Assembly: GCA_964388035.1 (NCBI GenBank)
Contig: CAYLZE010000002.1
Span: forward strand, 98,141-146,907
Direction: 5' to 3'
DNA from: an uncultured archaeon
GTDB lineage: Archaea; Asgardarchaeota; Lokiarchaeia; Sigyniarchaeales; SOKP01
DNA length: 48,767 nucleotides
Part shown: positions 10,791 to 36,583 of the stretch, piece by piece
Numbering within the stretch: the stretch's first letter is position 1
Layout: each line of letters starts with the position of its first letter
Notes under the pieces: generated by a model
The model's database searches: none
What the model was told of the DNA's origin: nothing
Seen by the model: only the letters and a program-made list of their open reading frames with translations
Program-made: the position numbers and the translations under genes

Positions 10791-13436
10791 TTGAAACCAA
10801 AGGGAATCTTGAGTTTAAAAGGAGAAAAGTTAAGATGTGTTGCCATGCCACTTGGAGGTATTGGAACGGGGTCGATCGCTCTGGGAGGAGATGGTCTTTT
10901 AAAACAATGGCAAATCACTAACACCATAAAACATAACGCATTCGTTCCAAATAGTTTTTTTATGATAAGTGGTCAAATGGTAGGCAAGGAGAAATTTAAT
11001 CGCTTTACCAAAGCTCTATTTTGTCCGCACGTCCATGAGAGCCCCAAATTTATACCCGCCAAATCTGTATCAGATCATAAAATTACTGCAGCAATGAAAG
11101 AGATGTTCAAAACTCTCGAAGGAGTAGATGAAATTCAATTCGATGGGGAATATCCTTTAGCTTTTTTGAAATATAAAGACAATAAAATTCCATTAGAAAT
11201 TAATCTTACTGCATTCAATCCATTTATTCCCTTGGACAGTAAAAATTCAGGATTGCCTATAATCTTGTTTCAATTTGACTTAAAGAATGTTTCTGAAGAA
11301 CTTGTAGAATTCACATTAATTGGGAATCTTATGAATTTTATTGGGTGGGATGGTCTAAAAACACTACAAGGCAATGAAAATCCTTTATTTGGAGGAAATA
11401 CCAACATTCTCCGTCAAATTGGAGAATGGAAGGTATTACAGATGAAATCAAAGACCATTTTAAAGGCAGATAAACGATATGGAGATGTGAGCTTGGCAAT
11501 ATACGACGCAAATGCATTGAGCGTGGAAGCATGGGATGATTTACATGATTTTTGGACTAATCTCACGGAAAAAGGAAAATTAGTCGATACTATTAAGGAA
11601 GAGATGAGTCCTTTGGGAAAAACTTGGATGGGCAGTTTAGCGCAAAAATCAGTTCTAAAACCGGGTGAAAGCAACAAAATCACATTTTTAATTGCTTGGA
11701 ATTTTCCAAATCGGGTAGTAGACTGGTCTGATAGCACTCTCATGAACTATGGGCAGCTTCCCGACCTAAAAACGGAATTTTGGATTGGAAATAATTATAA
11801 TAATTGGTTTGGAAGCTCTTTAGATGTTGTAAATTATGTTAATAAAAATTGGGCATATCTGACGAGCAATACTTTTGCTTTTCATCATATCTTTTTCTCA
11901 ACAAATCTTCCCAGAGAAATTTTAACGAGCATCTCAGCAACAACCTCAACCTTGAGGTCTCCCACGTGTTTATGGATCCATGATGGAAGTTTTCATTCTT
12001 TTGAAGGGTGTTGCGGTGCTTCTACATCAAAATCTTTTGGAGGGAGTTGTCCCATGGATTGCACGCATGTTTGGAATTATGCTTTTAGTTTAGCATATTT
12101 TTTCCCTTCCTTGGAAAGAACCATGCGATATACCGAATTTAAGATGCAGCACGAAATGGGTTATTTACCCCATCGCTCGATCCTTCCTTTATATTTACCC
12201 CAATTAGAAATGACCAATGAAATGCCTCCTGCGATCGATGGGATGTTTGGAATGATCTTAAAAATATATAGAGATTATCTCATTACCGGTGATTATGATT
12301 TTCTTAAATTCTCATGGCCAAAAATTGCAGGATTAATGACCTATATTTTTTCATTTATCGATACAAAACAGGATGGAGTAATTTATCATTCTCAGCCAAA
12401 TACTTATGATTGCGAATTGAAAGGGCTGAATACGTTTATTGGAACACTCTATTTAATAACTCTTTTAGTTTGCGAACGAATTGCTCAAAAATTGGATTTA
12501 CCAAATTGGGCTATAAAATGTAGGAAAGCCCATGATGCAGGACGCAAGCTATTGGATAAAGAGTGTTGGAATGGCGAATACTATATCCAGAAATATAACG
12601 AGCAGAAAGTCTCCGAATACCAGTATGGGAGCGGATGCCATTCAGATCAGCTCATGGGACAATGGTGGGCTTTTAATTTGGGATTTGATTATATTCTACC
12701 TCCCGAACATGTTAATAAAGCCATTGAATCAATAGTAAAATATAATTTTAGGGATTCGTTTGAGGGAATTGAACAATTTCGATGTTTCGCATCCCCAACA
12801 GATTCGGGGCTATTAAATTGTACATGGCCAAAGGGTAATATACCAGAAGTTCCCATCAGATACACTAACGAAATTTGGACAGGTATTGAATATGAAGTTT
12901 CCGCTTTATGCTTTTATTCAGGAAGGTTGGAAGAAGGGTTTAAAATCATCCATGCGATCCGAGAACGATACGATGGTTCTCATCGAAATCCTTGGAATGA
13001 AGTCGAATGTGGGGATCATTATGTGAGAGCTATGTCTTCGTGGACCATGTTACGAGCTTTAACCAAGATGGAATATAACGTGGTATTAAAACGATTTAAG
13101 ATTGCGGCAAAAATGACCAAAGAACCCTTTATTGCATTTTTCATTACGGGTACTGCTTGGGGACAAGCCCTTCAATCTTTTTTAAATAACACATTTACAT
13201 TAATCTTAACCATTTCTTTTGGAAAAATAGATATAAATTCCATTATTATAGATGAATTATACGGAATATCTCCTGATAAAGTTTGTCTTAAAATTAAAGA
13301 TTTATTGAAAGGGAAGCAAGAAATACTTGATACTACTCTCTCCACGAGAACTGCAGGGGTTGAAATTATTCCAAAAATGCCGATTAATGTGAAAGAAGGG
13401 TTTGAATTATTAATTGAATTAACCTCCAAAATCTAA
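10791..13436 (+). CDS. GH116 glycoside hydrolase (non-lysosomal glucosylceramidase/GBA2-like)
   Basis: AMPLGGIGTGSI, FNPFIP..SGLP, CTHVWNY, PNTYD, DQLMGQW, EIWTGIEY and NPWNEVECGDHYVRAMSSW motifs. Confidence 0.93.
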   Translation: MKPKGILSLKGEKLRCVAMPLGGIGTGSIALGGDGLLKQWQITNTIKHNAFVPNSFFMISGQMVGKEKFNRFTKALFCPHVHESPKFIPAKSVSDHKITAAMKEMFKTLEGVDEIQFDGEYPLAFLKYKDNKIPLEINLTAFNPFIPLDSKNSGLPIILFQFDLKNVSEELVEFTLIGNLMNFIGWDGLKTLQGNENPLFGGNTNILRQIGEWKVLQMKSKTILKADKRYGDVSLAIYDANALSVEAWDDLHDFWTNLTEKGKLVDTIKEEMSPLGKTWMGSLAQKSVLKPGESNKITFLIAWNFPNRVVDWSDSTLMNYGQLPDLKTEFWIGNNYNNWFGSSLDVVNYVNKNWAYLTSNTFAFHHIFFSTNLPREILTSISATTSTLRSPTCLWIHDGSFHSFEGCCGASTSKSFGGSCPMDCTHVWNYAFSLAYFFPSLERTMRYTEFKMQHEMGYLPHRSILPLYLPQLEMTNEMPPAIDGMFGMILKIYRDYLITGDYDFLKFSWPKIAGLMTYIFSFIDTKQDGVIYHSQPNTYDCELKGLNTFIGTLYLITLLVCERIAQKLDLPNWAIKCRKAHDAGRKLLDKECWNGEYYIQKYNEQKVSEYQYGSGCHSDQLMGQWWAFNLGFDYILPPEHVNKAIESIVKYNFRDSFEGIEQFRCFASPTDSGLLNCTWPKGNIPEVPIRYTNEIWTGIEYEVSALCFYSGRLEEGFKIIHAIRERYDGSHRNPWNEVECGDHYVRAMSSWTMLRALTKMEYNVVLKRFKIAAKMTKEPFIAFFITGTAWGQALQSFLNNTFTLILTISFGKIDINSIIIDELYGISPDKVCLKIKDLLKGKQEILDTTLSTRTAGVEIIPKMPINVKEGFELLIELTSKI

Positions 13437-13519
13437 ATACACCAAATTGAGTTCTAATCTATTAGAAATACAATGGAGCAATACGCTGTTTTTTATTTAA
13501 TTTCTTTTGAAAAGGAAAT
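13024..13519 (+). repeat. Direct repeat copy A (GH116 3' end plus downstream intergenic DNA)
   Basis: Aligns with 14333-14829: about 81% identity over the first ~127 bp and 97/99 over the last 99 bp (manual count). Confidence 0.92.
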
Positions 13520-13534
13520 AAGTGTCGAAGAACT

Positions 13535-13717
13535 GACGGGTTCTCGCACATTGTCTCATAGATAAAATGAAAGGCGCCTACATATCTCTTTTTTTATAAT
13601 TGGCTCGTAACTAATCGGATCTGAAAAAGAAGTTTGAAATTAATCAATTCCCTTTCCAATATTCACTTTTATTGCCACTTGATATCTCTTTTTGATAACT
13701 TCTTCCGCAATTATTTT
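13535..13717 (-). pseudogene. Degenerate internal fragment of the DUF362 gene (copy of ~15595-15781)
   Basis: Shared blocks such as CCAATATTCACTTTTAT and TTTGATAACTTCTTCCGCA, with small indels. Confidence 0.85.
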
Positions 13718-13815
13718 AGGGATTCATAAATAACCAAAAATTCAAGAATTAAACAAATTTAATTTCATCTGTGGTATGGATTAAATATTTATTGAATTGC
13801 TACTTAATAAAATCA

Positions 13816-14043
13816 ATGGATTTTAATTATGATAAGATGGCAGATGCGCTTTACATTCGGTTTTCGGGTGAAAAAGTCTTAAATTCAGATGAAATCGCAA
13901 GCGGAATTATTATCGATTATGGTAAGAAAAATAATATTATCGGTGTCGAAATATTGAATTTTAATAACCGAAACCTTAACCTTAATGACCTTGTACAAAT
14001 GAGTGTGGAAGAATTAATACCGAGACTAGCAAAATGTCAATAA
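13816..14043 (+). CDS. DUF2283 family protein (predicted antitoxin)
   Basis: YDKMADALYIRF...IIIDY...IIGVEIL signature; the ATG at 13816 is the likely start. Confidence 0.88.
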   Translation: MDFNYDKMADALYIRFSGEKVLNSDEIASGIIIDYGKKNNIIGVEILNFNNRNLNLNDLVQMSVEELIPRLAKCQ

Positions 14044-14270
14044 GGTTCACTAAACATTCTTTAGAACGAATGAGGATTAGAGATATTACAAAAGAAGAAA
14101 TTATCGATGTAATCGTTAATCCCGATAAAAAATTAAATGATTCTTCAGGAAATATCATTGTTCATAAATTAAAAAAGAATTATCTCTTACGAGTTTTTTA
14201 TTATAATGAAGAAGGATCTAATGTAGTCATTACTGCATACAAAACATCTAAAATTGATAAATATATATAA
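14034..14270 (+). CDS. DUF4258 family protein (predicted RelE-like toxin)
   Basis: FTKHSLERMRIRDI...LLRVFY...VVITAY; overlaps the DUF2283 gene by 10 nt. Confidence 0.85.
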   Translation: MSIRFTKHSLERMRIRDITKEEIIDVIVNPDKKLNDSSGNIIVHKLKKNYLLRVFYYNEEGSNVVITAYKTSKIDKYI

Positions 14271-14332
14271 CTTTAATTTATTTAAATTTAGGCTCTACTT
14301 CTAAAGAATATTGTGAAACGGTTAGACATTGC

Positions 14333-14829
14333 TGAGAGCAATGTCTTCATAGACCATTTTACAAGCTTTAACCAAAACGGACTATGACGTAGTATTAAAG
14401 TGATTTAAGATTGTAGCAATAACAACTAAAAAACCCTTTTCTGGGTTTTTCGTTACGGGTACTGCTTGGGGACAAGTTCTTCAATCCTTTTTAAATTACA
14501 CATTTATCTTTATCTTAACCGTTTCTTTTGGAGAAGTGGATATAAATTCCTTTATAATAGATGAATTATACGGAATATCTCCTGATAAGGTTTGTCTTAA
14601 AATTAAAAATTTATTGAGTGGGAAGCAAGAAATACTTGATATTACTCTCTTCACGAGAACAGCTGGGGTTGAAATTATCCCAAAAATGCTGATTAATGTG
14701 AAAGAAGGGTTTGAATTATTGGTTGAATTAAACCTCCAAAATCTAAATACACCAAATTGAGTTCTAATCTATTAGAAATACAATGGAGCAATACGCTGTT
14801 GTTTATTTAATTTCTTTTGAAAATGAAAT
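14333..14829 (+). pseudogene. Direct repeat copy B: truncated GH116 3'-end duplicate (includes ORF 14536-14760)
   Basis: Has TGG>TAG and CGA>TGA stops and a 1-nt insertion near the end relative to copy A. Confidence 0.92.
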
Positions 14830-14875: not shown

Positions 14876-15943
14876 CTAGTTTTCAAAAAATTCTCGATTT
14901 ACCCATGTAAATAAAGATTCCATTCGGGGAAATAACCATATTTGAAAATGATGGGGAAGGAAATATTGCATGTACAGTGCAGATTTCCAAAAGTTTACTT
15001 TATTATAATCCATCGATTCATTTCTTATCTTTTTCAAGATTTCTTCACGCGGCCAACTCGAATCCGGATGCAGCTTATAATCCAGTTTTTTTTCCTTTAA
15101 ATTTATCTTGCAATATTTTATGTATTCAAATGGATATCCCAATAATTCGGATGCAACTTTATCTCCTCTTAGCATGTCTTTGGATACGATCATCCGATTG
15201 AATTCCACGGGATACATAAAATGGGGTCCCACCCCCGTACCCACATTAAAGGTAGCTAATATGTTCAAATCGGGTGTCATTATCCTGGCAGCGGCTGCTA
15301 CCACTTTATCAATCCTGGAATATTTCCGGTGATACTTCGACTTTTTAAATTCTGCAATGGCCCCATACATGTTTTTTTGATTAGCCGTCAAGCCACATTC
15401 CCAATGATGCTTGGGAGGAGCAAAACTGATTATTTTAACTTCGGGTTTAAGTAGAATCTCAGGTAGTTTTAGAGAGACATCAAGATCACGGCACTTCATA
15501 TCAACAGTTGAATATTCGGATAAATTTACGAATTTACAACCGGTCTTTCTACATAGTTCATTATACCCTCGAACATCGAGAAGTTTCTTAGACATGACAC
15601 GTGCCCGCATATTAGCCTCACAAATAAAGGGAGTAGCACTCATCTCTCTTACTTTCTTTATTATTGCTTCACAAATAATGGGATCAGAAAAAGAAGTTGA
15701 AATATAATCAATTCCTCCTCCAATATTCACTTTTATCGCCACTCGATCTCCTGGTTTGATAACTTCTTCCGCATTTATTTTTTCAAATGCTTCTGATACT
15801 TGCCCGTAAAGGCGGTCATTATCCTGAATTTCTTGGATTAACACCAATTTATCCTCTTTCAATACTTCATGAACTTTTTCAATACCCCTTAAATACCCAT
15901 CTTCTTGAAAGATAGAATATCTTTCGGTATCATATTTCATCAT
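14876..15943 (-). CDS. DUF362 family protein (putative Fe-S protein)
   Basis: IKPGDRVAIKVN, PKHH...LTANQKNMYG, GVGP and D.VASELLGY motifs. Confidence 0.8.
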   Translation of the reverse strand: MMKYDTERYSIFQEDGYLRGIEKVHEVLKEDKLVLIQEIQDNDRLYGQVSEAFEKINAEEVIKPGDRVAIKVNIGGGIDYISTSFSDPIICEAIIKKVREMSATPFICEANMRARVMSKKLLDVRGYNELCRKTGCKFVNLSEYSTVDMKCRDLDVSLKLPEILLKPEVKIISFAPPKHHWECGLTANQKNMYGAIAEFKKSKYHRKYSRIDKVVAAAARIMTPDLNILATFNVGTGVGPHFMYPVEFNRMIVSKDMLRGDKVASELLGYPFEYIKYCKINLKEKKLDYKLHPDSSWPREEILKKIRNESMDYNKVNFWKSALYMQYFLPHHFQIWLFPRMESLFTWVNREFFEN

Positions 15944-16112: not shown

Positions 16113-16929
16113 ATGAACATAGCACAGACAGTGAATCTTATCAAGCAAATTATCGCTATCATAAAATTCCTCTTCAAGAGTGAGTAGTATCGTTATAGAA
16201 TTAATTTATATTGTAGTTGAAGTAGAAACGTTTGACCATGATCCTTTTTTAGGATTAGCTCACACCACTCCCGAAATCTTAAAGGATATAAAATCTAATC
16301 AATTGGAATTTGCGGTAAACCTCACGGATATCTCTCTAACCACGCTCATGGAATGGGGTCATGGAACGCCAGGCTTGAAAAAAGTAATTGGGATAGCAAC
16401 CTTGAATGCACTCTCCCAACATGTTTTAGAAATCAAAAATCCCCATGAATTTTTATAAATTTCCCTCTTAAGAGAATTGAATCTTAGCAAGAATTAAAAC
16501 ATGCTCTTTATTGGGTTTATCAAGCATTTAATCGATAAGATCTTGAAAATTACAAATAAAATAATAATTGTGGATCATGATGTTGGGAAATTCATCGAAT
16601 ATAAAAACCTTAATATCAAACGAGATCTTGCGGAATTATCGCCCTGAGATCTCAAGGTAGATGTCTTGATATGTACGGGAACCACCATTGTAAATGATAT
16701 TATTGAGCAGATTCCCCATACATTCAAGAATCATGCTCAAAAGATTGTAATCTTAGATCCCTCTTCTAGCATTATTCCTGATATATTATTTGATAGGGGT
16801 GTTGATATCGTAGGAGGAATGAAAATAGTAGATTCCAAAAAGGTCCTAACAGTGATCGAGCAAGGAGGGGGCAGGAAGTTTTTCAAACAGCATGGAAAGA
16901 AGTATTTTTTAAAGAAAACCCCATTTTAA
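16113..16929 (+). pseudogene. DUF364 (Rossmann-like, putative heavy-metal chelation) pseudogene
   Basis: ORFs 16180-16458 and 16666-16929 share a frame, separated by TAA, TAA and TGA; an N-terminal frameshift lies near 16150. Motifs: GIATLNALSQ, CTGTTIVN, GVDIVGG. Confidence 0.8.
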
Positions 16930-20949: not shown

Positions 20950-21303
20950 TTAAAGGGGTCTTCTCTCATATATTTTTTTAATGGGGAATATGATATGCCA
21001 AATAAAATAAGGATATTCTTGATTTTTGCTACTCCTTACCGATTTGGAATGCGGGGTGTATTCCTTACGAAAATTATTGAGAAATTCTATATACTTTTCC
21101 TTAAAAATTTCAAATTCATCATTGGTAAGGCTCCACACGGAAAGCCTGCAAACATTTTGAAGGGAAAAAACACGTTCTAAAGTTTCATAATCTTGAGGAG
21201 GAAATTCTATAACTTTTTTTCCAAATTCATCATAATAGCGCGTTATATCACCCAAGATGTCTTTGAGGGTTTCCAACAACAATCTATCGTTTTCAAAATC
21301 CAT
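20950..21303 (-). CDS. Hypothetical protein, possibly the orphaned C-terminal part of a larger (regulator-like) protein
   Basis: 117-aa ORF with protein-like composition; its 5' end abuts or overlaps the CocE fragment, leaving no promoter space. Confidence 0.45.
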   Translation of the reverse strand: MDFENDRLLLETLKDILGDITRYYDEFGKKVIEFPPQDYETLERVFSLQNVCRLSVWSLTNDEFEIFKEKYIEFLNNFRKEYTPHSKSVRSSKNQEYPYFIWHIIFPIKKIYERRPL

Positions 21304-25906: not shown

Positions 25907-26779
25907 ATGACTGAAATAGATATCGAACCGACTTATATCGGTAAAAATGCGGGATTGGTTTTTAAAGTTCCCAAAGAATTATTTAGCATGAGTATGGGAC
26001 CAGCAGAAAAAGTAGATCGGAAAGTCGCCAAAGAATTTAGCAAGTATTTGAGAGGAACATTTAAGGGATTTCAAGATGCGCGCAAAACTAAATATGGCAA
26101 TGAAAATAATAGTAAAACGGAAACACTTCCCGAATTCTGGAATGAATTTGAAGAAAAAGCAAGAGAAATGGATATTGATTTGATTGGATATACTCCCGTT
26201 CTTGAGAATTTCATTTTCAAGGATTTAAAAGTATATGGGCGCAATGCAATTGTTTTAGGAATGGAAATGAAATGGGATAAAATTAAAATGGCTCCCAGTG
26301 CAATTTGTGAAATGGAGTGTTTTAGAGTCTATAAAATACTTGGAGATGCCACCATTGAGCTTACAAATTATCTAAAAGAACAAGGATATAAATCCGAAGC
26401 TCACCATCCATTTGGCGGAAAAATGCTCTTTCCACCTCATGCCGTGGCTGCAAATTTAGGAATTAAAGGTCAAAATGGATTAATTGTAACTCCAGAATTT
26501 GGACCCCGACAGCGGTGGAGCATGATCTCAACCGATGCTGAGATTCCCACGATAACTAAAAAGGATTTTAGCGACATAGAAAATTTCTGTAAGAATTGTG
26601 GAGTGTGTATTAGAAATTGTAAGGGAAAAGCAGCTTATGAAAATGCTATCGAAAAGGTTAGCGGTTCGGGAATCATAACCCATATTGAACGCTCGAAATG
26701 CATTCAGAGTCTTTTAACTAATAATTATTGTTCTGTTTGTTTAAAAATGTGCCCCAAATCAAAACCATCAAGCCAATAA
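25907..26779 (+). CDS. Short reductive-dehalogenase/QueG-like cobalamin + 4Fe-4S protein
   Basis: AIVLGMEM, A.LG..GQNGLIVTPEFGPRQR, FCKNCGVCIRNC and C...CSVCLKMCP motifs; no Tat signal. Confidence 0.8.
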   Translation: MTEIDIEPTYIGKNAGLVFKVPKELFSMSMGPAEKVDRKVAKEFSKYLRGTFKGFQDARKTKYGNENNSKTETLPEFWNEFEEKAREMDIDLIGYTPVLENFIFKDLKVYGRNAIVLGMEMKWDKIKMAPSAICEMECFRVYKILGDATIELTNYLKEQGYKSEAHHPFGGKMLFPPHAVAANLGIKGQNGLIVTPEFGPRQRWSMISTDAEIPTITKKDFSDIENFCKNCGVCIRNCKGKAAYENAIEKVSGSGIITHIERSKCIQSLLTNNYCSVCLKMCPKSKPSSQ

Positions 26780-26837: not shown

Positions 26838-27599
26838 ATGTTAAAAGGGATTTTCTTTGATCTTTATGGCACTCTTTTAGTATATCAAAACATTGATTTA
26901 GCTTGGAAAGATTGGCTAACTACATTCTATAATTCAGCTTGTAGTTATGGTTTAAAAATAAATAAATCCTCATTTAAAAAAGAATGTAATGGATTTTTTA
27001 GTAAGCCAGCCCCATTGAGTATTGAGGAAGATTTTTCTACTTTTGAGCAGAGAGTGGCAAACCAGTGTGAGGATCTGGGATTAATTTTGGCTAATTCAGA
27101 AATAAAAAATATTGCCACTGCTTGCGTTACTTCCTGGCAAAAGTACGTGAAATTGGACCCTTTTGCTATTGAAATTTTAAAAATATTAAAAAAAAGGCAT
27201 GCTCTTGCTTTAATCACCAATTTTGATCATCCTCCACACATTTACTCACTTCTTTCACAAGAAAAAATTCTTCAGTATTTTGATTCAATTGTAATTTCTG
27301 CTGAAGTTGGAATCAGAAAACCCAATCCTCTGATTTTTGATTATGCCCTCGAGGATACTAGTTTAAATTTAAATGAAATAATCTTTATTGGAGATTCTTA
27401 TGATGATTTTTGGGCTGCGCGTAATGCTGGGATTCCTTTTATATTAATACAAAGAGACAACTCAGAAGATCAACTTATAACAGATTATTATGCAGACTCC
27501 TCTGGAAAAATAAATGAAGCAGTCAGAGAAAATGTAAGAAAAATTCCCAGCTTAAACCAATTGATTGCAAGTCTTAATGAATTCGAAAATAATATTTAA
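26838..27599 (+). CDS. HAD-superfamily hydrolase (subfamily IA)
   Basis: FDLYGTL, ITN, RKPNP.IF and IGDSYDD motifs. Confidence 0.92.
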   Translation: MLKGIFFDLYGTLLVYQNIDLAWKDWLTTFYNSACSYGLKINKSSFKKECNGFFSKPAPLSIEEDFSTFEQRVANQCEDLGLILANSEIKNIATACVTSWQKYVKLDPFAIEILKILKKRHALALITNFDHPPHIYSLLSQEKILQYFDSIVISAEVGIRKPNPLIFDYALEDTSLNLNEIIFIGDSYDDFWAARNAGIPFILIQRDNSEDQLITDYYADSSGKINEAVRENVRKIPSLNQLIASLNEFENNI

Positions 27600-27630
27600 T
27601 TAATTTAATTCTATTAATAGGAAAAGTAAT

Positions 27631-29160
27631 ATGAAAGAAAAGATGAATATTTTATTCATAATAACTGATCAACAGCGTGCTGATCACCTCGGATGTGCTG
27701 GTAATCCTGATATAAAAACTCCACACATCGATCAATTAGCGGCGGAAGGAGTGAGGTTTAATAATGCATATTGTGCAAATCCAATGTGCATGCCTAATCG
27801 CTCAACAATTTTCACGGGAAAATATCCCAGCCTCCATGGCGTGAGATGTAATGGAATTAATTTAAATCCCTCAATTCCAACTTTTCCTGATGCATTAAGA
27901 AAGGCAGGGTATCTGACAAGTTCTTTTGGGAAAATACATCTTAATTGGTATGGAACCCCTTGGAATCGGAAAAATTATTCCCATGAACAGATGATTCCTT
28001 TTATTTATACTCCTAAGGATAAACGAATACCCATTCCAAAACCTTATTATGGACTCGGCGAGGTAGAGCTAACAGTCGGACACGGGGATGCAGTGGCAGG
28101 ACATTATTTGGATTGGATTGAAGAAAACGCTCCAGAATATTTAGATCTCATAAAATCTCGGGCATTAAAATTATTTGATCGAATCTTGGACGAGTCTCCG
28201 ATCCCGAGTAATATTTACTCAACACAATACATTACGGAGAGAACAATTAACTTTTTGGAGAATCATGCCGAAGGAAAACATGGAGATCACCCCTTTTTTA
28301 TCCATTGTTCCTTCCCAGATCCACACCATCCTACTTGTCCACCAGAAGAGTATCGAAACTTGTATGATCCCGACAAGATTGAAATATCTCCAACATTAAA
28401 CGACATTCAATCCTTGCACGATCATGAGGTTTTAAAACATCATGTAAACGTGTATCGAAGAAGCAGATTACGGGAAACTACCGAAGAAGAATTACGCACC
28501 TTTCATGCGTATACCTATGGTACCATTTCTTTAATCGATAAAGGAGTGGGGGATATTCTTTCAGCTTTAAATACTTTAGGATTAAAAAAGAATACAATAG
28601 TTATTTTTACAAGTGATCATGCCGACTTAATGGGAGATCATGGGCTTGTCCTTAAAGGACCTGCACATTTTCAAGGGTTAATCAAGGTTCCAATGATATG
28701 GAAAGTTCCTGGAATGACCCCAAAAGGAAGCATTTGCGAATCTTTAATTAGTTCAATTGATATCCCCTCAACAATCTTAAATTTAGTGGATATAAAAGAA
28801 AAATATAAACCTTCTGGGATGCAAGGATATGATATTTCTCCGATTTTAGAAAATACGGATGTTCAATTAAGAGAAAATTGTATAATTGAAGAAGATGAGG
28901 ATGCGCACAAATCTGCAACTCAAATACTTCATAAAGATATCCGGGTTCGAACAATGATGACTAAAAAATATAGGGTTACTTTATACGAAGGGTTCCCTAA
29001 TACGGGAGATTTATATGACATTCAAAATGATCCTCTTGAAAAAGTTAATTTATGGAACGATTTAAATTATAAGCAAATCAGAAATGAATTGGTTAATAAA
29101 ATGTTCCACGAAATATTAAATCTTCAAGATCGATATCCCAAAAAACAAGCCCAAGCATAA
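27631..29160 (+). CDS. Formylglycine-dependent sulfatase
   Basis: NILFIITDQQR, CMPNR, GKIH, DPHHP and TSDHAD motifs. Confidence 0.93.
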   Translation: MKEKMNILFIITDQQRADHLGCAGNPDIKTPHIDQLAAEGVRFNNAYCANPMCMPNRSTIFTGKYPSLHGVRCNGINLNPSIPTFPDALRKAGYLTSSFGKIHLNWYGTPWNRKNYSHEQMIPFIYTPKDKRIPIPKPYYGLGEVELTVGHGDAVAGHYLDWIEENAPEYLDLIKSRALKLFDRILDESPIPSNIYSTQYITERTINFLENHAEGKHGDHPFFIHCSFPDPHHPTCPPEEYRNLYDPDKIEISPTLNDIQSLHDHEVLKHHVNVYRRSRLRETTEEELRTFHAYTYGTISLIDKGVGDILSALNTLGLKKNTIVIFTSDHADLMGDHGLVLKGPAHFQGLIKVPMIWKVPGMTPKGSICESLISSIDIPSTILNLVDIKEKYKPSGMQGYDISPILENTDVQLRENCIIEEDEDAHKSATQILHKDIRVRTMMTKKYRVTLYEGFPNTGDLYDIQNDPLEKVNLWNDLNYKQIRNELVNKMFHEILNLQDRYPKKQAQA

Positions 29161-29439
29161 ATCTGGATAAAATAATATAAAGCAATAAATCTATTTTCAG
29201 AACATGTTAAATTATATTCAAAATTTTCTTTTCATTTTTGATTCTTGAGATTTAAAATATTTTTACAAGAAAATTTGATTACTTAGGAAAAAAAAGCGTT
29301 ATAATGAATAAGAATATTTAATTTCTCAAGCATTTTTGAATTCAAACTTATTAATAATGGGCATGATAAGTATAAAGAATTAAATTACTTTATATATCTA
29401 AATATCTATTATATATTTGATTATTGGTGAGCCATATAA

Positions 29440-30288
29440 ATGCAAGATGAATCAGATTCTCAGGATAAAATTACAATAGAAAGGAAACCCTTTGTCAGTA
29501 CTCGACATCGGGATGCGGAACCCGATACTTTCGATCCAAACGTACCTAGATTAGGAAGGAGGGAAAGTGAACCGCACTCTGCAGAAATAACTTATTTACA
29601 CGATGTATTAACCACCAATTTTCCCGATGATCGAACCATGTGGGATTTGCATCATTACTTTGAAAAAGAAAGAATGAAAATTGATGTTCAATTTGACATA
29701 TCCTATTTTAAAGGGTTGAAAATACCTTATACTTTATCTTCATATCATGCTGATCAATTTAATAACAAGGTGCCTACCATGGTGATTAATATTCTCTCAA
29801 AAAGTACGTGGAGATCTGATATTGCAGAAAAGATTGACTTTTGCAGATTTTTGGCGATACCTTTATATGTTATTTTCCCTTCATTTCATGTATCGATTGA
29901 TATCTATAAACCTCCCTTTTTCCGTGCTTATATTTTACAATCAGATGGAGCTTACAAGATTCAGGAAGTTCGTAAAGTAGCCATTAACATAGAAGGAGTA
30001 TGGGATTTAGATGCGGCAATCGACGTGTCTGACATCGTTCCTTTTCGATTGGGGTTAAAGGAACGAGATGTCAAACACCAAAAAGAAGAACCTTTATATA
30101 GATTGGTATTAATCGCTCCCAAAAAAAACCAGATCTTATTAACTGAGATTGAGGAAAAGGAGCAATTAATTAGGGAACAATCCCAAAAAATCATGGAACA
30201 ATCCCAAAAAATCACGGAACAATCCCAAAAAATTGATAAACTTGAAGCTGAAAACTTAAAACTGAAAAATCGCCTTGAAGAAAAATAA
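29440..30288 (+). CDS. Uma2-like PD-(D/E)XK nuclease-fold protein with C-terminal coiled coil
   Basis: ESEPH, QFDISYF and P.MVINILSKST...D..EK pattern, followed by a heptad tail. Confidence 0.65.
   Translation: MQDESDSQDKITIERKPFVSTRHRDAEPDTFDPNVPRLGRRESEPHSAEITYLHDVLTTNFPDDRTMWDLHHYFEKERMKIDVQFDISYFKGLKIPYTLSSYHADQFNNKVPTMVINILSKSTWRSDIAEKIDFCRFLAIPLYVIFPSFHVSIDIYKPPFFRAYILQSDGAYKIQEVRKVAINIEGVWDLDAAIDVSDIVPFRLGLKERDVKHQKEEPLYRLVLIAPKKNQILLTEIEEKEQLIREQSQKIMEQSQKITEQSQKIDKLEAENLKLKNRLEEK
30174..30233 (+). repeat. About 3 x 21-bp intragenic tandem repeat GGAACAATCCCAAAAAATCA(T/C), encoding EQSQKI(M/T/D)
   Basis: Read directly from the sequence. Confidence 0.92.
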
Positions 30289-30542
30289 AAATTACTGAAA
30301 GAGAACAATCATTTTAAGGGAAAAACATTGATTACTATCAATCTCAAATCCTTTTCAAAAATATATTGAGAAGTCCCGTTTCCAATCAGACAATTAGGAG
30401 GATATTGAGAATCGAGTGCGGACTTTTAGAACTCTTTCAAGTTAATATTCCATCAAATGGTGAATAATTAGATGCTATTGACCTCAAGTATACAGATTAC
30501 GTAATCAATTCACGGTTCATAAAATTTTTATGATGGTTATAT

Positions 30543-31397
30543 ATGTTATTTCTTATGAATGACAGTTTTCTCAAAAAGCATGAACTTACATTATATTATG
30601 TTTTCGCCTTGATATTAACGAGTTTGGGTGGATTTGTTTCATATGCGTTCCAAATCCAGATTTTTAGTCCAAGTAATCTGAATTTTATTGCATTTTTATT
30701 ATGGGTACTAATGGCTTTTAGCCCCACCATTACTGCTACTCTCCTTACAGCCATTAATTCTGGCAAAACAGGATTAAAAGAATTATTTTCTGGATTCTTG
30801 AAGGCTAAAGTGTCTTGGAAATGGTGGCTTGCTGCCCTCATACTTTTATTTTTACCGTTGGCTGTTTGTTTCATCCTAGTATCATTCAGTGGAAGTTGGT
30901 CGATCCCTGCGGATTTCACTATATCGCTTTTGCTCACTTTTTTCCTGTACAATTTCTTTTCAGGACCTGCATCGGAAGAAGCAGGCTGGCGAGGGTTCGC
31001 TCTTCCACGAATGCTCAAGAGATGGAATGCAACCACAGCCACGCTCGTCCAAGCTGCTATATGGATTGTTTGGCACGTTCCCTATGCATTCGTTCCCGGC
31101 TCATCGCAATCAACCGCCTTCTGGCCAGTTTATGCAACTTTGATATTAGCGATCAATATAATCTTAAATTGGCTTTATGTTAACTCAAAAAGTAGCTTAT
31201 TGATTACTACGATAGCTCATTTTTGCTTCAATTTCAGTAGCGTGCTCATTTTGGGATTGCTCATGCTGATTTCTTCCATGCAATTTAACATCATTGGAGC
31301 GATTTTAGGAGGTGCATACATTTTATTGATCTTTATTTGTTTTAATGCGAAAACATTTACTCGGTGGGTTAAATCAAGTAAAGAACAACCAGAATAA
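30543..31397 (+). CDS. CPBP (Abi/CAAX type II) intramembrane glutamic protease
   Basis: EEAGWRGF, W..WH and HFCFN motifs; multiple TM helices. Confidence 0.92.
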   Translation: MLFLMNDSFLKKHELTLYYVFALILTSLGGFVSYAFQIQIFSPSNLNFIAFLLWVLMAFSPTITATLLTAINSGKTGLKELFSGFLKAKVSWKWWLAALILLFLPLAVCFILVSFSGSWSIPADFTISLLLTFFLYNFFSGPASEEAGWRGFALPRMLKRWNATTATLVQAAIWIVWHVPYAFVPGSSQSTAFWPVYATLILAINIILNWLYVNSKSSLLITTIAHFCFNFSSVLILGLLMLISSMQFNIIGAILGGAYILLIFICFNAKTFTRWVKSSKEQPE

Positions 31398-31566
31398 ATT
31401 TAATTTATCCTCTGAAGGATTACATCAATCCTTATTCAGAGTATTTCTTTTTTTTAAGTCATGTTAGTCTTTGTTATCCTTTTATAAGTCTTTTTTTATA
31501 AAAATGCTAATTGGTTTAATTTAGTTACCTTCTATTTTTAGTAGATAAAAAAAAATGGAATGAGAA

Positions 31567-32919
31567 CTAACTTTTCTTTTCCCATTCAAAGTCTAGTTGA
31601 ATAAATTTTCTAGCGAAAAAGTAAGCCACTATCAGAATGGCTGAACAAATTGGCCCCCATAAGATGTATCCAATAGAAAAAGCGGAGGATCTTAGTGTAA
31701 TTTGAGGTAATTCTAACACACCGCCCATGATAATTAGCCCTATTGCTTGAAAAATGTTTAAAGGAATACTAGGAAACCCTATATACGTCCCAGCTTTTAG
31801 TTCTCCGGTCACTTTTTCATCATCTTCGGAGATATCGGGTACCATTATGGATTGAAAGATGTACCATCCGGATAAGATCCCTGCTATTCCAAGTAGGAAA
31901 AGAATTCCATAAATTACCAACGGTAAATTCTCAATTAGTCCTAATAACGTTAAGGGGAGAAATATAGCTGCCACTAATAAATCATAGAGAAGGCTTTTCT
32001 TTTTACCGAATTTTCTTATCAATATTCTCCAAATATACAAGAAAAACAGAATGCCCAGAATGAATATGGCGGCGGCGACTATGTATATTGTTTCGCTTAA
32101 TTGTAATACGACTTCCGTGAATAACAAGATTAAAGAGCTTACTTGTGTCCAAGCTAAACTGGCAATGCCAATCATCAAGGTAACCAATAAAAAGTTTTTA
32201 TTTTTTATTACTGTTTTCAATGCTTCCACCATAGTTGAAGTAATTGGATAAGGTGGTTCCGTCGGCATGCAAAATGCAGATAAGTAGAAGAAAAAAACGG
32301 GAAGTATTCCAAATAATATGACCAAATAAAGAAATGTGGGAGGAATATTTGAAGGATTTACTTGAATTTGGTCAATGAAGCGGGTCAAAATTAGCAGGGA
32401 GAAAACAGCCATGGTGGCAGTTCCTGCAAATGAGAAGGTTTGCTCAAATTGGGCTGCCTTTGGCCTATCTACCGATCTAAATTGTTCGGCCATCCAAGCG
32501 CCTTTAACGCTAGTTAAACCATATGCAAAATTAAAGAATTGATATATTATTAATAACCAAGTAAAGATCGCAGTCTTATCGTTTAAGGGCAGAAATAGAG
32601 TGGGTAATAATAGCAGAATAAATGAAATGCCCAATAAAGGACTTAAAATTATCATGTAAGGTTTCCTTCGACCCCATCGGGTATATTTGGCATCACTTAG
32701 CCATCCTAAAAAGAATTGGGAGCCCGCAATCATGAGCTTGCCCATTCCCAGAGCAAACCCCACCATTAATGGTGGAATTTGATACGCAAGAATATATAAT
32801 GTAGCGAGAGCGACATCTGCAAATCCCATCATTACTGATGTGCCGTATTTTGGAATCGTGTAAAATAAAAAGTTCCTCTGCCTATTTGGTGGTCTTTCAA
32901 TCTGAGTTTGTTCGTTCAT
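31567..32919 (-). CDS. MFS transporter, GPH family
   Basis: GWLSDAKYTRWGRRKPY and PDISEDDEKVTGELKAGTY motifs; about 12 TM helices. Confidence 0.9.
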   Translation of the reverse strand: MNEQTQIERPPNRQRNFLFYTIPKYGTSVMMGFADVALATLYILAYQIPPLMVGFALGMGKLMIAGSQFFLGWLSDAKYTRWGRRKPYMIILSPLLGISFILLLLPTLFLPLNDKTAIFTWLLIIYQFFNFAYGLTSVKGAWMAEQFRSVDRPKAAQFEQTFSFAGTATMAVFSLLILTRFIDQIQVNPSNIPPTFLYLVILFGILPVFFFYLSAFCMPTEPPYPITSTMVEALKTVIKNKNFLLVTLMIGIASLAWTQVSSLILLFTEVVLQLSETIYIVAAAIFILGILFFLYIWRILIRKFGKKKSLLYDLLVAAIFLPLTLLGLIENLPLVIYGILFLLGIAGILSGWYIFQSIMVPDISEDDEKVTGELKAGTYIGFPSIPLNIFQAIGLIIMGGVLELPQITLRSSAFSIGYILWGPICSAILIVAYFFARKFIQLDFEWEKKS

Positions 32920-32959
32920 TTTAGATCTTCTTTATTATGTAGCATTTTAAAATAATTCT

Positions 32960-33016
32960 TTAATAAAATTATTGCCTTGATCATTATTTAAATCTTACAT
33001 TTCATAGAAAATTATA
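32960..33016. repeat. 57-bp direct repeat R1; contains a minus-strand TATA-like TTTAAATA, probable MFS promoter
   Basis: 53/57 identical to 33184-33240. Confidence 0.9.
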
Positions 33017-33017
33017 G

Positions 33018-33180
33018 ATAATCCCGGGTTTATCCCGTGGGAAGTTCGACTACAAATTTTCAATCGATCCTTTTCTACTAAAAATCCAAATAGGGGATTA
33101 GGCACGTATAGCATGAAATTTTTAAGCTTATTTTTGAAGGGAGCCGTGTCTTTTACGATTTCTGAAAAGGAAGGAACTAG
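33018..33180 (+). pseudogene. 163-bp copy of the histidine-kinase HATPase region (36381-36543)
   Basis: Ungapped 147/163 identity with a 56-nt perfect core; encodes NPGFIP..V.LQIFNRSFSTKNPNRGLGTYSMKFLS. Confidence 0.95.
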
Positions 33181-33183
33181 TTC

Positions 33184-33240
33184 TTAATAAAATAATTGCC
33201 TTGATCATTAATTAAATCTTACTTTTCATGGAAAATTATA
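33184..33240. repeat. 57-bp direct repeat R2
   Basis: 53/57 identical to 32960-33016. Confidence 0.9.
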
Positions 33241-33252
33241 AGTAAAATTGTA

Positions 33253-34617
33253 TTATTTCATTACAAGTAAAAATCCATCGTTCGTGGTAATGATAAGGGA
33301 TTGGTGTGGTCCTATTATCAATGAGGAGATAGGATGACCAACTTCAATTTCTCTTAATTTCACGCCCTTGGCATTGAAAACATGTACTTTTCCGTCAAGA
33401 GTTCCTAAATATGCAAAATCATTTCCATCTATTATGGGATTCGCGGTAACTGGGGCACTCAATTCAATAGCTTCATGATTCAATGTGTTTTTTGTACGGA
33501 TAGTATTCGTATCAAGTTTTAAAAGCCATTTTGAGGGCTCATGACCTCTATCTTCAAGTCTTATCCAAATGATATTATTTTTGCCTATTGCGGGATGACC
33601 AATGGGGTTCAAGCCAAAAAGCTTACCATATTTTCCTATAGAATCTTTATCGCTTAACCTATCCCAAGTCCAAATAGAGTGATCAAGCATTGAATCTGCT
33701 AATTTAAAGTGTTTTTTATACGTAAGATTCCTTCCACCATCTCTCATGCCAAGATCTTTGGGAAGATTCATGGCTAAAATATCTTCAAGCTTGAAGGCAA
33801 TTAATTGTCCAAATCTCCCGCCCATATAGTAAATGATATTCTCATGATCTACACATATAGAAGTCGGATGGAGGCATCCAGAAACATAATAATCCGGTAA
33901 AAAGAACCCTAATTTTTCGCCTAAATAATTAAAAAACACGCATTCGTAATAAAAATCTTCATTAATTTCGTCAGGAGGGTCCCAGGTGTATGCTTCGGGA
34001 TGAGTAATGTTAGCGCGATAAGATACGTAAAGATTTCCCTTCTCATCAATTGCCGCAGGAGATACTTGCACGTTTCGCCCGATTCTCCATTCTTTTGTTA
34101 AGCGAGGATCATCTTTTCCATAGGAATGACCATCGGGGGAGAGAACATATAATCCCGCCCAATCGATGCTCCAAGCAGGCACATAAATGATTCCGTGGAG
34201 CCCAATATTTGGCGGAGAGGGAAGCCCATCAATTAGTTTCTCCCATTTTAAATCTCCATTAGCTTCCCAACACTGTATTCTCGCAGTCGTTCCCAGGATT
34301 AAACTCCCATCTTGTCGTATGACTGGAGGGGTCATCCCATAAAAAGGTTCTCCACTTGTCATAAATATTCCCTTTTTCCATTTTTGCCGCCCGTTAAAAT
34401 TAAGAGCGAGTAATTCGTTTGAGTCAAGAGCTAAATATATCGAATCATCAATACCAATTATGGGTTCCCATGAATGAGATCCTACCTTCATTCTCCATTG
34501 AATTTCATTCCCTCTTGGACCATAAAGCATACTTTGTCCCGTTGATCCCCTATTACCACGGAATCTTGGCCATGATGTCGACGCAAGAATGAATTCTTTA
34601 TTATCTAATGCAGCCAT
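33253..34617 (-). CDS. PQQ-like/BamB-type beta-propeller repeat protein
   Basis: WPRFRGN..STG motif, repeated P.I..DG.IY...L.A....G..KW blades, YLGTLDGKVH. Confidence 0.75.
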   Translation of the reverse strand: MAALDNKEFILASTSWPRFRGNRGSTGQSMLYGPRGNEIQWRMKVGSHSWEPIIGIDDSIYLALDSNELLALNFNGRQKWKKGIFMTSGEPFYGMTPPVIRQDGSLILGTTARIQCWEANGDLKWEKLIDGLPSPPNIGLHGIIYVPAWSIDWAGLYVLSPDGHSYGKDDPRLTKEWRIGRNVQVSPAAIDEKGNLYVSYRANITHPEAYTWDPPDEINEDFYYECVFFNYLGEKLGFFLPDYYVSGCLHPTSICVDHENIIYYMGGRFGQLIAFKLEDILAMNLPKDLGMRDGGRNLTYKKHFKLADSMLDHSIWTWDRLSDKDSIGKYGKLFGLNPIGHPAIGKNNIIWIRLEDRGHEPSKWLLKLDTNTIRTKNTLNHEAIELSAPVTANPIIDGNDFAYLGTLDGKVHVFNAKGVKLREIEVGHPISSLIIGPHQSLIITTNDGFLLVMK

Positions 34618-34870
34618 GCTATTTTTTTTTATTTTCTTCCGTTAAAATAGCTTTTCTTATACATTTCATTATAACTAAATATAGAGGGATATTTAAGTAT
34701 TAAAAGGTGAGTTTTTCTGATACCATGCTCTTATTATTAGGATGTAATCTAACGTGATTTTTTACCTTTTCTTATACCTCTATTTGATTTAATTAATGGG
34801 AGATTTTATCCAAAAAAAATGGTATAAAATGACAAAATTCATTATTATTACATAATCAATTATTTCAATT

Positions 34871-35266
34871 GTGCCTTCAGTAAAAAAATAAAAACTAAAA
34901 GGAAAAAGCCAAGAATATAAAAAAGCAATATCGAATGGAATTCATGTTTCTTTGGTCAAAACGCTCAAAATTCCTGATGATGATAGAAAACAACATCTTT
35001 ATGAGCTGGATTAATCTAATTTTGAAATCCATCCCAAAAGATCAAATAATTACATGTTAATAGTGCTTACCATGTTTAAAGGGAGGACGGTTGAAACGAA
35101 AAAGAAATTATATACCGAAATCATCGCTATTTTGAAGAATTCACCCAGGATTGATGGAAATGATAATATTATTATGGTTATCCATGAACTAGAATTGGAA
35201 AATTGGGACATAAGAGGAGGAAAATTTCCCAATAAAGCAACCTTAGAATATAAAATTGACATATAA
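34871..35266 (+). pseudogene. Tautomerase (4-OT/MSAD-like) pseudogene
   Basis: One frame from a GTG with catalytic Pro1: MPSVKK*KLKGKSQEYKKAI..GIH..LV..LKIPDDDR.Q.LYELD*...MFKGRT.E.KKKLY...ENW.IRGG; two in-frame TAA. Confidence 0.85.
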
Positions 35267-35437
35267 CGCGAAAGGGACTTATTTACATTTTAATAGGTCA
35301 TCTAACATCAATATTATACTTCGTTTTAGAAGTATTAATAAATAATAACTATATGATCTAATTCGATTATCAAATATTATGTTTTAATTTTTTATAGAAA
35401 GTTTATTTTATATCATGATTAAATTAGGTTTTCCGTC

Positions 35438-36583
35438 ATGATAAATAAAATTCAAAAGGATCTAGATTTAAATCTGAAAGAGAGAGCGAGTGACGAAGAA
35501 ATACAACGACAAGTTCTACTGTTTCAAAATAATGAGGTTTTGAATGAATTTTTGGGAAAAATCCCCATGGTATTTCTCATCGTGAATAAATATAGACAAA
35601 TAGTGTATCTTAACGAAGGAGCATTAGAATTAACAAATATGGATGACGTGGCTTCTGCAGTTGGAAAAAGACCCGGAGAATTAATAGGCTGCATTCATTC
35701 TACGGAAAGAAGTACTGGATGTGGAACAGTTGAAGCGTGTACTTATTGTGGGGCATTGGATGCCGTATTAGAAAGTCAAAAAGGTAATCCTACAACAAGA
35801 GAATGTCAATTGATCCTCAATACAAATAGTGCTTTAAACCTGCGTATACATGCTGCTTCTCTTTCAATTAACGGAGAGAAATTCACTGCTATCACCCTCC
35901 AAGACATCCAACATGAAAAATGGAGATTGTTTTTAGAACAAATATTTTTTCATGATCTTCTTAATTCTGTATCCACTTTGAAAGGAATTTTTGATTTATT
36001 GGAAAATTACAAAGAAAAGTTAAACGAAAACGATCTGATAAAAATGGCTGGCGATGTTATCCAAGGTCTCATCGAAGAAATTCAATCTCAACATCTCCTA
36101 ATTAATGCAGAAAATAATCGCTTGAAAATTAGCATTGACACGTTCAATACCATGAATTTACTGGAAGAAATATATAAAACGTATAAAGAACATGATTTAG
36201 TTAAAGGAAAATCCTTTCAACTTGATTCAAATTCTGCGTCCATTACTATTACTTCGGATAGAACGCTGTTGAAGAGAATCTTAATCAACATGATCAAAAA
36301 TGCTCTGGAAGCCACTCCTGAAAACGGGAAAGTACTCTTTGGATGTAAACAAAAAAAGGCTCAAGTTCAATTTTGGGTGCATAATCCCGGCTTCATCCCA
36401 CGGGATGTTCAATTACAAATTTTCAACCGATCCTTTTCTACTAAAAATCCAAATAGGGGATTAGGCACGTATAGCATGAAATTCTTAAGCTCCTTTTTAA
36501 AGGGAGCCGTTTCTTTTACGACTTCTGAAGAGGAGGGAACTAGATTCACAGCTGAATTTCCAATTTCTCTTAATGAAGATTAA
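35438..36583 (+). CDS. Soluble sensor histidine kinase with Cys-rich PAS-like input domain
   Basis: H-box FFHDLLN, N-box NMIKNALEA, FSTK...RGLG; GCIHS...GCG...C..CG cluster. Confidence 0.9.
   Translation: MINKIQKDLDLNLKERASDEEIQRQVLLFQNNEVLNEFLGKIPMVFLIVNKYRQIVYLNEGALELTNMDDVASAVGKRPGELIGCIHSTERSTGCGTVEACTYCGALDAVLESQKGNPTTRECQLILNTNSALNLRIHAASLSINGEKFTAITLQDIQHEKWRLFLEQIFFHDLLNSVSTLKGIFDLLENYKEKLNENDLIKMAGDVIQGLIEEIQSQHLLINAENNRLKISIDTFNTMNLLEEIYKTYKEHDLVKGKSFQLDSNSASITITSDRTLLKRILINMIKNALEATPENGKVLFGCKQKKAQVQFWVHNPGFIPRDVQLQIFNRSFSTKNPNRGLGTYSMKFLSSFLKGAVSFTTSEEEGTRFTAEFPISLNED

Follow-up and report, generated by a model that had tools for sequence, protein, structure and literature searches.

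Repeat-flanked gene fragments in a Lokiarchaeia genome look like scars of local duplication and gene insertion

At two loci in the window analysed here, a 48,767-nt stretch of DNA from an uncultured archaeon of the Lokiarchaeia, a repeat is followed by an internal fragment of a gene lying to its right and then by a second copy of the repeat. The initial annotation took this as a candidate for an undescribed system that captures gene fragments, and the question is whether the two loci record such a system or a more familiar kind of mutation. Both have the appearance of common scars, of the sort that local duplication and gene insertion with long target duplication leave, rather than of products of a dedicated fragment-capture system. 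The arrangement first noticed is present in the sequence at both loci, but at locus 1 a 611-nt toxin–antitoxin (TA) cassette precedes the second repeat (Table 1).

Table 1. Features of the two loci (positions in the window).
Feature	Positions	Strand	Remarks
GH116 glycoside hydrolase gene, intact	10791..13436	+	Pfam Glyco_hydr_116N E 8.6e-54, DUF608 E 4.9e-47
Repeat A	13024..13519		Live 3′ end of GH116 (final 413 nt) plus 83 nt downstream
f1, decayed internal piece of DUF362 gene	13520..13721	-	Matches 15581-15781, native orientation
Cassette left end, upstream of antitoxin gene	13713..13790		~80% similarity to intergenic 4842-4920
DUF2283 antitoxin-like gene, cargo	13816..14043	+	Pfam PF10049 E 2.7e-17
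DUF4258 toxin-like gene, cargo	14034..14270	+	Pfam PF14076 E 4.9e-8
Repeat A′	14333..14829		Dead copy of GH116 3′ end (2 in-frame stops) plus copy of downstream region
DUF362 gene, intact	14876..15943	-	Pfam PF04015 E 2.6e-27; source segment 15581-15781
MFS transporter gene	31567..32919	-	Pfam MFS_2 E 8e-31; R lies 41-102 nt upstream of start codon
Repeat R	32960..33021		~90% to 33184-33245
f2, copy of HATPase_c G2-box region of histidine-kinase gene	33018..33180	+	90.2% to 36381-36543
Repeat R′	33184..33245		~90% to R; directly before 3′ end of beta-propeller gene
Beta-propeller protein gene	33253..34617	-	Weak Pfam match PF13570 E 2e-8; in block absent from G001 (synteny)
Histidine-kinase gene, intact	35438..36583	+	Pfam HATPase_c E 8.6e-12; source 36381-36543 ends 40 nt before stop codon

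Repeats A and A′ of locus 1 are 89.5% identical across 497 nt. Fragment f1 (~200 nt) begins directly after A and has the orientation of its DUF362 source, to which its right 130 nt are 83% identical. Its left 68 nt match more weakly yet significantly (local score 18, the 99th percentile being 11; 0 of 2,000 random windows). Differences from the source fall 7/7/10 over the three codon positions, and f1 contains one stop. The DUF2283/DUF4258 cassette (13722–14332), whose two genes overlap by 10 nt, separates f1 from A′. The insert at locus 1 is a single-copy TA pair with relatives in other genera; the DUF2283 gene occurs once in the genome and has 76% amino-acid identity to a pair in genome G011.

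At locus 2 the insert comes from a gene that lies 3.4 kb off, and there is no foreign cargo. The direct duplication measures 62–67 nt. Fragment f2 aligns to the histidine-kinase gene without gaps and in the same orientation (E 1e-58). It has no stop codon, its differences fall 3/3/10 over the codon positions (9 synonymous against 6 non-synonymous), and over a 56-nt core, at the kinase motif that is most conserved, it matches perfectly (P = 0.013 for a perfect run of at least 56).

Junction microhomology is 0–5 nt across the loci scored. It is 0–1 nt at A|f1, while at locus 2 TAA is common to R|f2 and TTC to f2|R′. These sequences are consistent with the recombination or replication error with microhomology junctions that had been proposed at the outset. 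No further copies of A, A′, R or R′ were found in the 5.47-Mb genome, each repeat being locus-specific and present twice. The ‘repeat – captured piece – repeat’ layout bears a superficial likeness to CRISPR arrays, integron cassettes and Pack-MULE or Helitron capture. Unlike those, there are two copies per locus and no CRISPR-like or integron-like array, the repeats are local host sequence differing by locus, the inserts are 60–200 nt of a neighbouring gene, and neither terminal inverted repeats nor cas genes (the latter sought among the ORFs at 10–39 kb) are present. Pfam scans of all ORFs in that interval likewise returned no transposase, integrase or other mobile-element genes.

The pattern recurs across the metagenome-assembled genome (MAG), as the initial annotation had anticipated. 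Its non-coding gene fragments number 48, and 21 of them have their source gene within 6 kb where 0.1 would be expected; 19 of these 21 are in direct orientation and 20 measure 49–271 nt. The same geometry is found at at least 12 loci. Counted over the whole set, repeat pairs on the same contig are direct in 204 cases and inverted in 30, and many are tandem paralogues that remain intact. At about eight loci, including locus 1 and others on contigs C4, C37, C96, C6, C54 and C1, cargo lies exactly between unbroken repeat copies; that at C96 is vapBC within a 611-nt duplication. The free ‘capture’ of fragments first envisaged gives way at the scorable loci (locus 1, locus 2, C4:75220-78619, C37:13083-15741, C41:188-5201, C30:6109-7649, C151:2477-5455 and C2:52301-55326). 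At all eight the relics agree in order and strand with the adjacent native segment, such that repeat and fragment together form a colinear, shrunken copy of the native neighbour. C41 and C151 each retain three colinear islands, pieces of the kind that stepwise trimming would leave.

A dedicated capture system producing antisense or pseudogene-derived regulatory RNAs is scarcely tenable on this evidence. Read-through from a neighbouring gene enters the fragment in antisense at both window loci and at three others, and R lies in the promoter region of the MFS gene, so R′ could be a second promoter. Across 20 fragments, however, orientation relative to neighbouring transcription or read-through is unbiased (5 antisense, 7 sense, 3 both and 5 neither). 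The claim that local transcription is systematically antisense to the source, for which orientation bias had been the annotation's own yardstick, fails on these counts. A T-rich terminator-like tract inside A (~13484–13510) separates GH116 from f1. Searches for associated enzyme genes, for a common motif at cargo ends and for Rfam families (within 12500–37500) returned nothing in support of a capture system or an antisense-RNA function. Moreover, the redundant copies appear to decay like pseudogenes, judging from the stops in A′ and f1.

We favour, at roughly even confidence, the reading that illegitimate recombination in rapidly evolving, lineage-specific regions left non-functional scars at both loci, through partial tandem duplication and insertion with long target duplication, followed by trimming. 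Unequal exchange at microhomology would first produce a tandem duplicate of a segment running from the repeat into a nearby gene. Internal deletion would then trim the redundant copy, whose surviving ends would be the repeat and the gene fragment. At locus 2 the unit from R′ to 36543 (~3.36 kb) would have been duplicated, and loss of ~3.1 kb from the first copy would give R–f2. At locus 1 the duplication junction would also bear the foreign TA cassette, which would make the locus an ‘insertion with long target duplication’, its target duplication being 497 nt long; as an addictive element, the cassette would favour cells in which the repeats have not collapsed. The sequences themselves show the anatomy, its recurrence, the colinearity, the microhomology, the decay of redundant copies and the lack of mobile-element genes, whereas we infer the order and number of events and the stabilising role of the TA pair. 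Locality, direct orientation, colinearity, microhomology, decay, the lack of recombinase genes, residence in lineage-specific blocks and recurrence in genome G024 all fit a trimmed duplication. Decay is seen in the stops of A′ and f1, and also in the informative amino-acid changes, of which 9 are derived in A′ and 4 in the live A.

Both parts of this reading have precedents. Achaz et al. reportedly found, in NAR in 2002, that close direct repeats are over-represented in the genomes of prokaryotes, and reviews by Reams and Roth are said to describe tandem segmental duplication followed by deletional remodelling. The loci here resemble the products of such remodelling in being direct, close and colinear, in their short junction homology and redundant-copy decay, and in the many intact tandem paralogues of the genome, but remodelling leaves unexplained the cargo genes placed exactly at unbroken-repeat junctions.

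Duplications flanking inserted DNA are already published as insertion with long target duplication, and the proposal of an undescribed system does not survive this precedent: foreign restriction–modification addiction modules are flanked by direct target duplications of 46 to ~420 bp (Furuta, Abe and Kobayashi 2010, PMC2853133). Their repeats often span the start or stop of a flanking gene, no transposase or integrase is involved, and no archaeal case is among those that passed the 2010 screen (PMC2853133). Nobusato et al. (2000, Gene 259:99), cited there, reportedly described this kind of insertion earlier. Both window loci share with it a direct duplication of more than 30 bp and the lack of a mobile-element gene, and locus 1 (a TA pair within a duplicated GH116 3′ end), C96 and an empty-site case in G024 are like it. 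The published cases speak for the favoured reading. The differences are that cargo here consists of TA pairs and ordinary or orphan genes rather than restriction–modification systems, that the host is an Asgard archaeon, that repeat copies are 76–96% identical rather than near-identical, that several loci add a neighbour-gene fragment at one junction, that locus 2 lacks foreign cargo and that the two window loci have no available empty-site counterpart.

A trimmed duplication also has points against it. Locus 1 requires up to three events, and the relic alignments contain few indels. Because cargo lies exactly between unbroken repeats, its arrival and the duplication seem coupled, as independent duplication followed by random insertion rarely gives this outcome; a single complex event would explain the placement better. 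Template switching of the FoSTeS/MMBIR type, said to have been described by Lee et al. in 2007 and Hastings et al. in 2009, is one such event. The nascent strand would quit its template at the repeat end, copy 60–200 nt from a same-strand site 0.7–3.4 kb away (at locus 1 the foreign cassette too), re-enter upstream and copy the repeat again, making the fragment a templated filler. This accords with the exact cargo placement, with the microhomology, with the uniformly short fragments and with the equal divergence of repeat and fragment at locus 2 (90% and 90%), which a single event predicts. Tandem duplications with templated insertions, in which a duplication flanks a short direct-orientation insert copied from nearby, are documented in other organisms (PMC8654963, PMC5120786). 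Those, however, are eukaryotic and seen as fresh mutations, whereas the copies here have aged and diverged to uneven degrees, and every fragment is colinear with the neighbouring copy. Random nearby templates would not yield colinearity at eight of eight loci, nor does one step sit well with the three islands kept at C41 and C151 or with single-copy cargos that have no source copy elsewhere in the genome. We regard template switching as unlikely.

The pattern of divergence bears on template switching and on the remaining alternatives. Locus 1 has diverged unevenly: mismatches between A and A′ drop from 8–11 per 50 nt at the left end to 0–2 at the right, corresponding to ~80% identity at the left end of A and 98% at its intergenic end, with f1 at 75–83% (P = 4e-4). 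This is at odds with template switching, and under a trimmed duplication it calls for mixed origins or for gene conversion at a later stage. Of 501 differences in the pooled fragment and repeat relics, 266 (53%) fall at third codon positions, where decay in place from birth would give ~44–46.5% (p 3e-5 to 2e-3). The excess in the fragments alone (88/159) is unexpected for DNA dead from birth, as template switching would have it. The pooled excess suggests that selection was acting while some of the divergence accumulated, as it would have on foreign alleles.

Import from a diverged relative would supply such alleles. A donor allele with a cargo-disrupted neighbour gene would enter either through a homologous anchor at one end and an illegitimate join at the other, or as a circle that integrates in a single crossover. 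The anchor would be duplicated, and the divergence of the repeats would be that of donor and recipient. De Vries and Wackernagel are said to have described in 2002 homology-facilitated illegitimate recombination in transformable bacteria, in which one homologous anchor and one microhomology join can likewise add foreign DNA and duplicate recipient sequence; no sign of a donor allele or of competence is seen here. Beyond the third-position excess, import is favoured by the synonymous and non-synonymous counts (9 against 6), absence of stops and perfect core of f2, by the symmetry of G/C-to-A/T differences between A and A′ (20:20), by the scarcity of indels and by MAG contamination of 7.26%, which suggests related populations in the sample. 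Recombination is inefficient across 10–20% sequence divergence, the range in question, and an earlier rearrangement in the donor would still be needed. The MAG offers no second allele of any gene involved. Codon patterns are near-neutral in A/A′ (12/14/23) and in f1, and stops occur. Bacterial long-target-duplication cases, on the other side, come mostly from naturally competent species (PMC2853133). We judge import, too, to be unlikely here.

An artefact of short-read metagenome assembly (k = 55) or of strain mixture is very improbable. The overlap between contig ends is indeed exactly 55 nt, and overlaps of that length border the 100-N scaffold gaps. In the assembly graph, the exact 56-nt core shared by f2 and its source and a ~70-nt exact run in A/A′ form repeat nodes; resolved the other way, locus 2 would give a 3.36-kb circle and a deleted chromosome. 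Against this, the copies differ at 10–20% of positions, so that junction k-mers must be present in the reads, ordinary reads span cores of 56–70 nt and there is no N in the window. Over 34435–36271 an independent JGI contig shows 99.9% identity, though it spans no junction. A gap-free 1.28-Mb contig of G024, from a related genus, carries these footprints too, which extends the pattern beyond short-read MAG assembly; in G024, C6 439920–441740 is missing in the sister species G017, giving an empty site.

The scars belong to a mutational kind already described in bacteria. What remains is that many gene insertions and partial duplicates lie between long, diverged direct repeats in a Loki-type Asgard genome and in a well-assembled relative, without recombinase genes and clustered in lineage-specific blocks of an otherwise syntenic backbone. 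Were the pattern general, its footprint could be used to measure gene gain and family expansion in Asgard archaea, such as that of small GTPases, and it would extend a poorly understood kind of insertion to archaea and to TA cargo. A bolder and rather unlikely reading is that insertion with a 30–600-nt target duplication would be a main, recombinase-independent route by which single genes (TA pairs, orphan, small GTPase and roadblock genes) enter or move in Lokiarchaeia, often bringing along filler templated on an adjacent gene. A single replication or repair process (template switching, or else one-sided recombination in a polyploid cell) might underlie it and contribute to the large, paralogue-rich genomes of Asgard archaea.

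The setting of the window loci can be compared with G001, of the same genus, which is the nearest genome and only ~70–79% identical. G001 lacks, within its syntenic backbone, the blocks that contain the two loci. There the MFS orthologue directly adjoins the AOR gene, the whole beta-propeller/histidine-kinase block is absent and GH116 is located elsewhere. The analogous C4 block is absent in five relatives from four genera.

Both repeat–fragment structures of the initial annotation were confirmed and extended to further loci. At the first (locus 1), the repeats and the fragment stood as described, but the description had left out a DUF2283/DUF4258 toxin–antitoxin cassette between the fragment and the second repeat. 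Repeat A comprises the live GH116 3′ end and 83 nt downstream, and the fragment f1 corresponds to 15581-15781 of the DUF362 gene (14876-15943, minus strand), in the same orientation; homology extends neither rightward past f1 nor leftward from A′. Mismatches between A and A′ thin out along A, from 8-11 per 50 nt on its left side to 0-2 on its right, an uneven density that would imply a mixed history or subsequent gene conversion. The gene pair is single copy in this MAG (G000), with homologues in other genera of the family at protein identities of up to 76%; in four relatives, such pairs are not flanked by direct repeats at distances up to 1.5 kb. At its left end (13713-13790, 79 nt) the cassette is ~80% identical to 4842-4920, which lies 9 kb away in the intergenic space of two convergent genes. 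This match may mark a site from which a cassette was lost, or may reflect a shared promoter/operator; there is no toxin–antitoxin coding remnant beside 4842-4920.

Locus 2, between MFS and beta-propeller genes, carries the fragment f2 in the orientation of its histidine-kinase source. Its junctions share TAA (R to fragment) and TTC (fragment to R′), and f2 contains a perfect core of 56 nt at the kinase G2 box (P = 0.013). A 70-codon ORF between the propeller and kinase genes (35054-35266, plus strand) resembles, by eye, a protein of the 4-oxalocrotonate tautomerase type; the DNA around it (34896-35267) has a 70% match to G024, a genome of another genus.

Positions of repeat–fragment structures, related loci and assembly artefacts in G000 (window positions unless a contig is named)
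Feature	Position	Description
Repeat A	13024-13519	89.5% identity to A′ over 497 nt
Fragment f1	13520-13721	Directly after A; decayed piece of DUF362 gene
DUF2283/DUF4258 gene pair	13722-14332	Pfam E 2.7e-17 and 4.9e-8
Repeat A′	14333-14829	Dead GH116 3′-end copy, two in-frame stops
Repeat R	32960-33021	41-102 nt upstream of MFS transporter gene
Fragment f2	33018-33180	Between R and R′; ungapped, 90.2% to 36381-36543 of histidine-kinase gene
Repeat R′	33184-33245	About 90% identical to R; adjoins 3′ end of beta-propeller gene
Same-geometry loci	C2:52301-55326; C4:75220-78619; C30:6109-7649; C37:13083-15741; C41:188-5201; C151:2477-5455	
Plain repeat – one gene – repeat loci	C96:3363-5464; C6; C54; C1; C19	
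100-N scaffold gaps with exact 55-nt overlap	C8; C41; C66; C76; C109; C169	False direct repeats in self-comparison

The window occupies positions 98141-146907 of contig C2 in G000. The claim that such structures recur is borne out genome-wide. Self-BLASTN of the whole 5.47-Mb MAG (211 contigs, 33% GC) with a simple ORF map yielded 48 non-coding gene fragments, 21 of which lie on the same contig less than 6 kb from their source gene (0.1 expected). Among these local fragments 19 are in direct orientation (P = 1e-4), and their median identity is about 85%, against about 72% for distant ones. One further locus (C10:19208-19952) has flanked fragment copies in a complex, tandemly repeated layout and was left out of the scored set. 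On contig C96, a vapBC (PIN) pair lies within 611-nt direct repeats, 82% identical and with dead gene ends in reciprocal arrangement; G000 thus has another toxin–antitoxin insertion with long target duplication besides locus 1. A 2.4-kb tandem duplication with 97.7% identity (C119:319-5233) would represent the process behind these loci at an early point, with the copy still at full length. G000 was assembled from short reads with k=55, as shown by overlaps of exactly 55 nt between contig ends and by scaffold gaps of 100 N. What look like 55-nt repeats at a spacing of 155 nt are such gaps with exactly overlapping sides and are unrelated to the repeat–fragment loci. The assembly contains Ras, Arf and roadblock genes, a gene content that marks a Loki-type Asgard archaeon. 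Exact look-ups of the propeller, DUF362, toxin and MFS proteins returned no identical protein on record, and a metagenome scan found one 1.8-kb contig with 99.9% identity to 34435-36271, which crosses no junction.

The pattern is real, enriched and not limited to short-read MAGs, since the footprint is also present on a gap-free 1.28-Mb contig (C6) of G024. The 761 kb sampled there contain 60 local repeat pairs, 57 of them direct, and about ten loci with this footprint. The segment 439920-441740, which holds an AlkZ-like gene and a 75-nt dead copy of the 3′ end of the upstream gene, is absent from the orthologous site of a relative (G017). At two other loci (189190-191728 and 703677-709815), one target sequence of 75-170 nt is present in three diverged copies, with two different gene sets between the copies (repeat – gene – repeat – gene – repeat); these arrays look like two insertions at the same site.

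The structures have several features in common. At all eight scorable loci, repeat plus fragment reproduces the adjacent native segment in shortened form, in the same order and on the same strand, with three colinear islands retained at C41 and C151. Junction microhomology is 0-5 nt, and the redundant copies show decay. There are no integrase or transposase genes in the span and no Rfam match. Over 12 inserts, the outermost 120 nt on the 5′ and 3′ sides have no motif in common, which argues against a family of site-specific elements. The inserted genes (cargo) are varied and single copy in G000 (toxin–antitoxin pairs, DM13, LCM methyltransferase, orphans); in G024 they encode a glycosylase, GTPases, roadblock and a methyltransferase. 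No close second copy of cargo genes was found in G000, which speaks against an origin by copy-paste inside this genome.

The simplest generic path, which we favour, would be that the segment reaching from the repeat to where the fragment ends was duplicated in tandem and that an internal deletion came later; these two steps yield locus 2 exactly. At about eight loci both repeat copies are unbroken and the cargo lies precisely between them, which suggests a single event for arrival and duplication and favours the rival mechanisms, template switching or one-sided recombination. Of 501 differences that separate live from dead copies, 53% fall at third codon positions. If the dead copies had decayed in place from birth, 44-46.5% would be expected, less than observed (p between 3e-5 and 2e-3); pure orthologue divergence would give 68%, far more than observed. 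The third-position excess, together with the perfect core of f2, hints at foreign alleles or formerly functional copies. The share is alike in fragment-type (0.55) and repeat-type (0.52) relics and so does not separate one-step from two-step formation. From the initial interpretation we retain a mutational mechanism as plausible; an undescribed capture system is unsupported.

Among known phenomena, insertion with long target duplication and remodelled tandem duplications come nearest. In the former, restriction-modification addiction modules lie between target duplications of 46 to about 420 bp, which often span gene ends; mobile-element genes are not involved and the mechanism is unknown (PMC2853133). 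Locus 1 fits this description. The present cases differ in their Asgard host, in their cargo of toxin–antitoxin and ordinary genes, and in having a piece of a neighbouring gene at the junction. Searches of the literature turned up no relevant account of such scars specific to Asgard archaea.

The antisense geometry at both window loci follows from the native orientation of the fragments and their opposite-strand neighbours. Orientation relative to local transcription is random among 20 fragments: 5 are exposed to antisense transcription from neighbours, 7 to sense, 3 to both and 5 to neither. A T-rich, terminator-like tract also lies between GH116 and f1. The initial annotation had itself named random orientation as grounds for refutation, and the proposal that antisense RNAs are routinely produced is therefore unsupported.

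Both window loci lie inside blocks missing from the backbone of G001, a same-genus genome and the closest compared; its coding DNA is only about 70-79% identical to G000, and at these loci gene order alone was compared, the intergenic DNA being too diverged for alignment. Since MFS directly adjoins the aldehyde:ferredoxin oxidoreductase gene in G001, the propeller–tautomerase–kinase block is an indel with R–f2–R′ at its left edge. Leftward synteny with G001 stops exactly between DUF362 and the next gene, and the analogous block on C4 is absent from five relatives in four genera. The interval 26838-37043, between the gene at 25907-26779 and the oxidoreductase gene, is a variable hotspot, with 8 genes in 10.3 kb here, the MFS gene only in 1.8 kb in G001 (C84 47456-52740 compared), and other content in about 5 kb in two further genera (G011:C90, G014:C58). 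Two short plus-strand ORFs elsewhere in the window, 21257-21892 with only a C-terminal PepX_C domain and 16180-16458 with a partial DUF4213, are possibly further gene relics.
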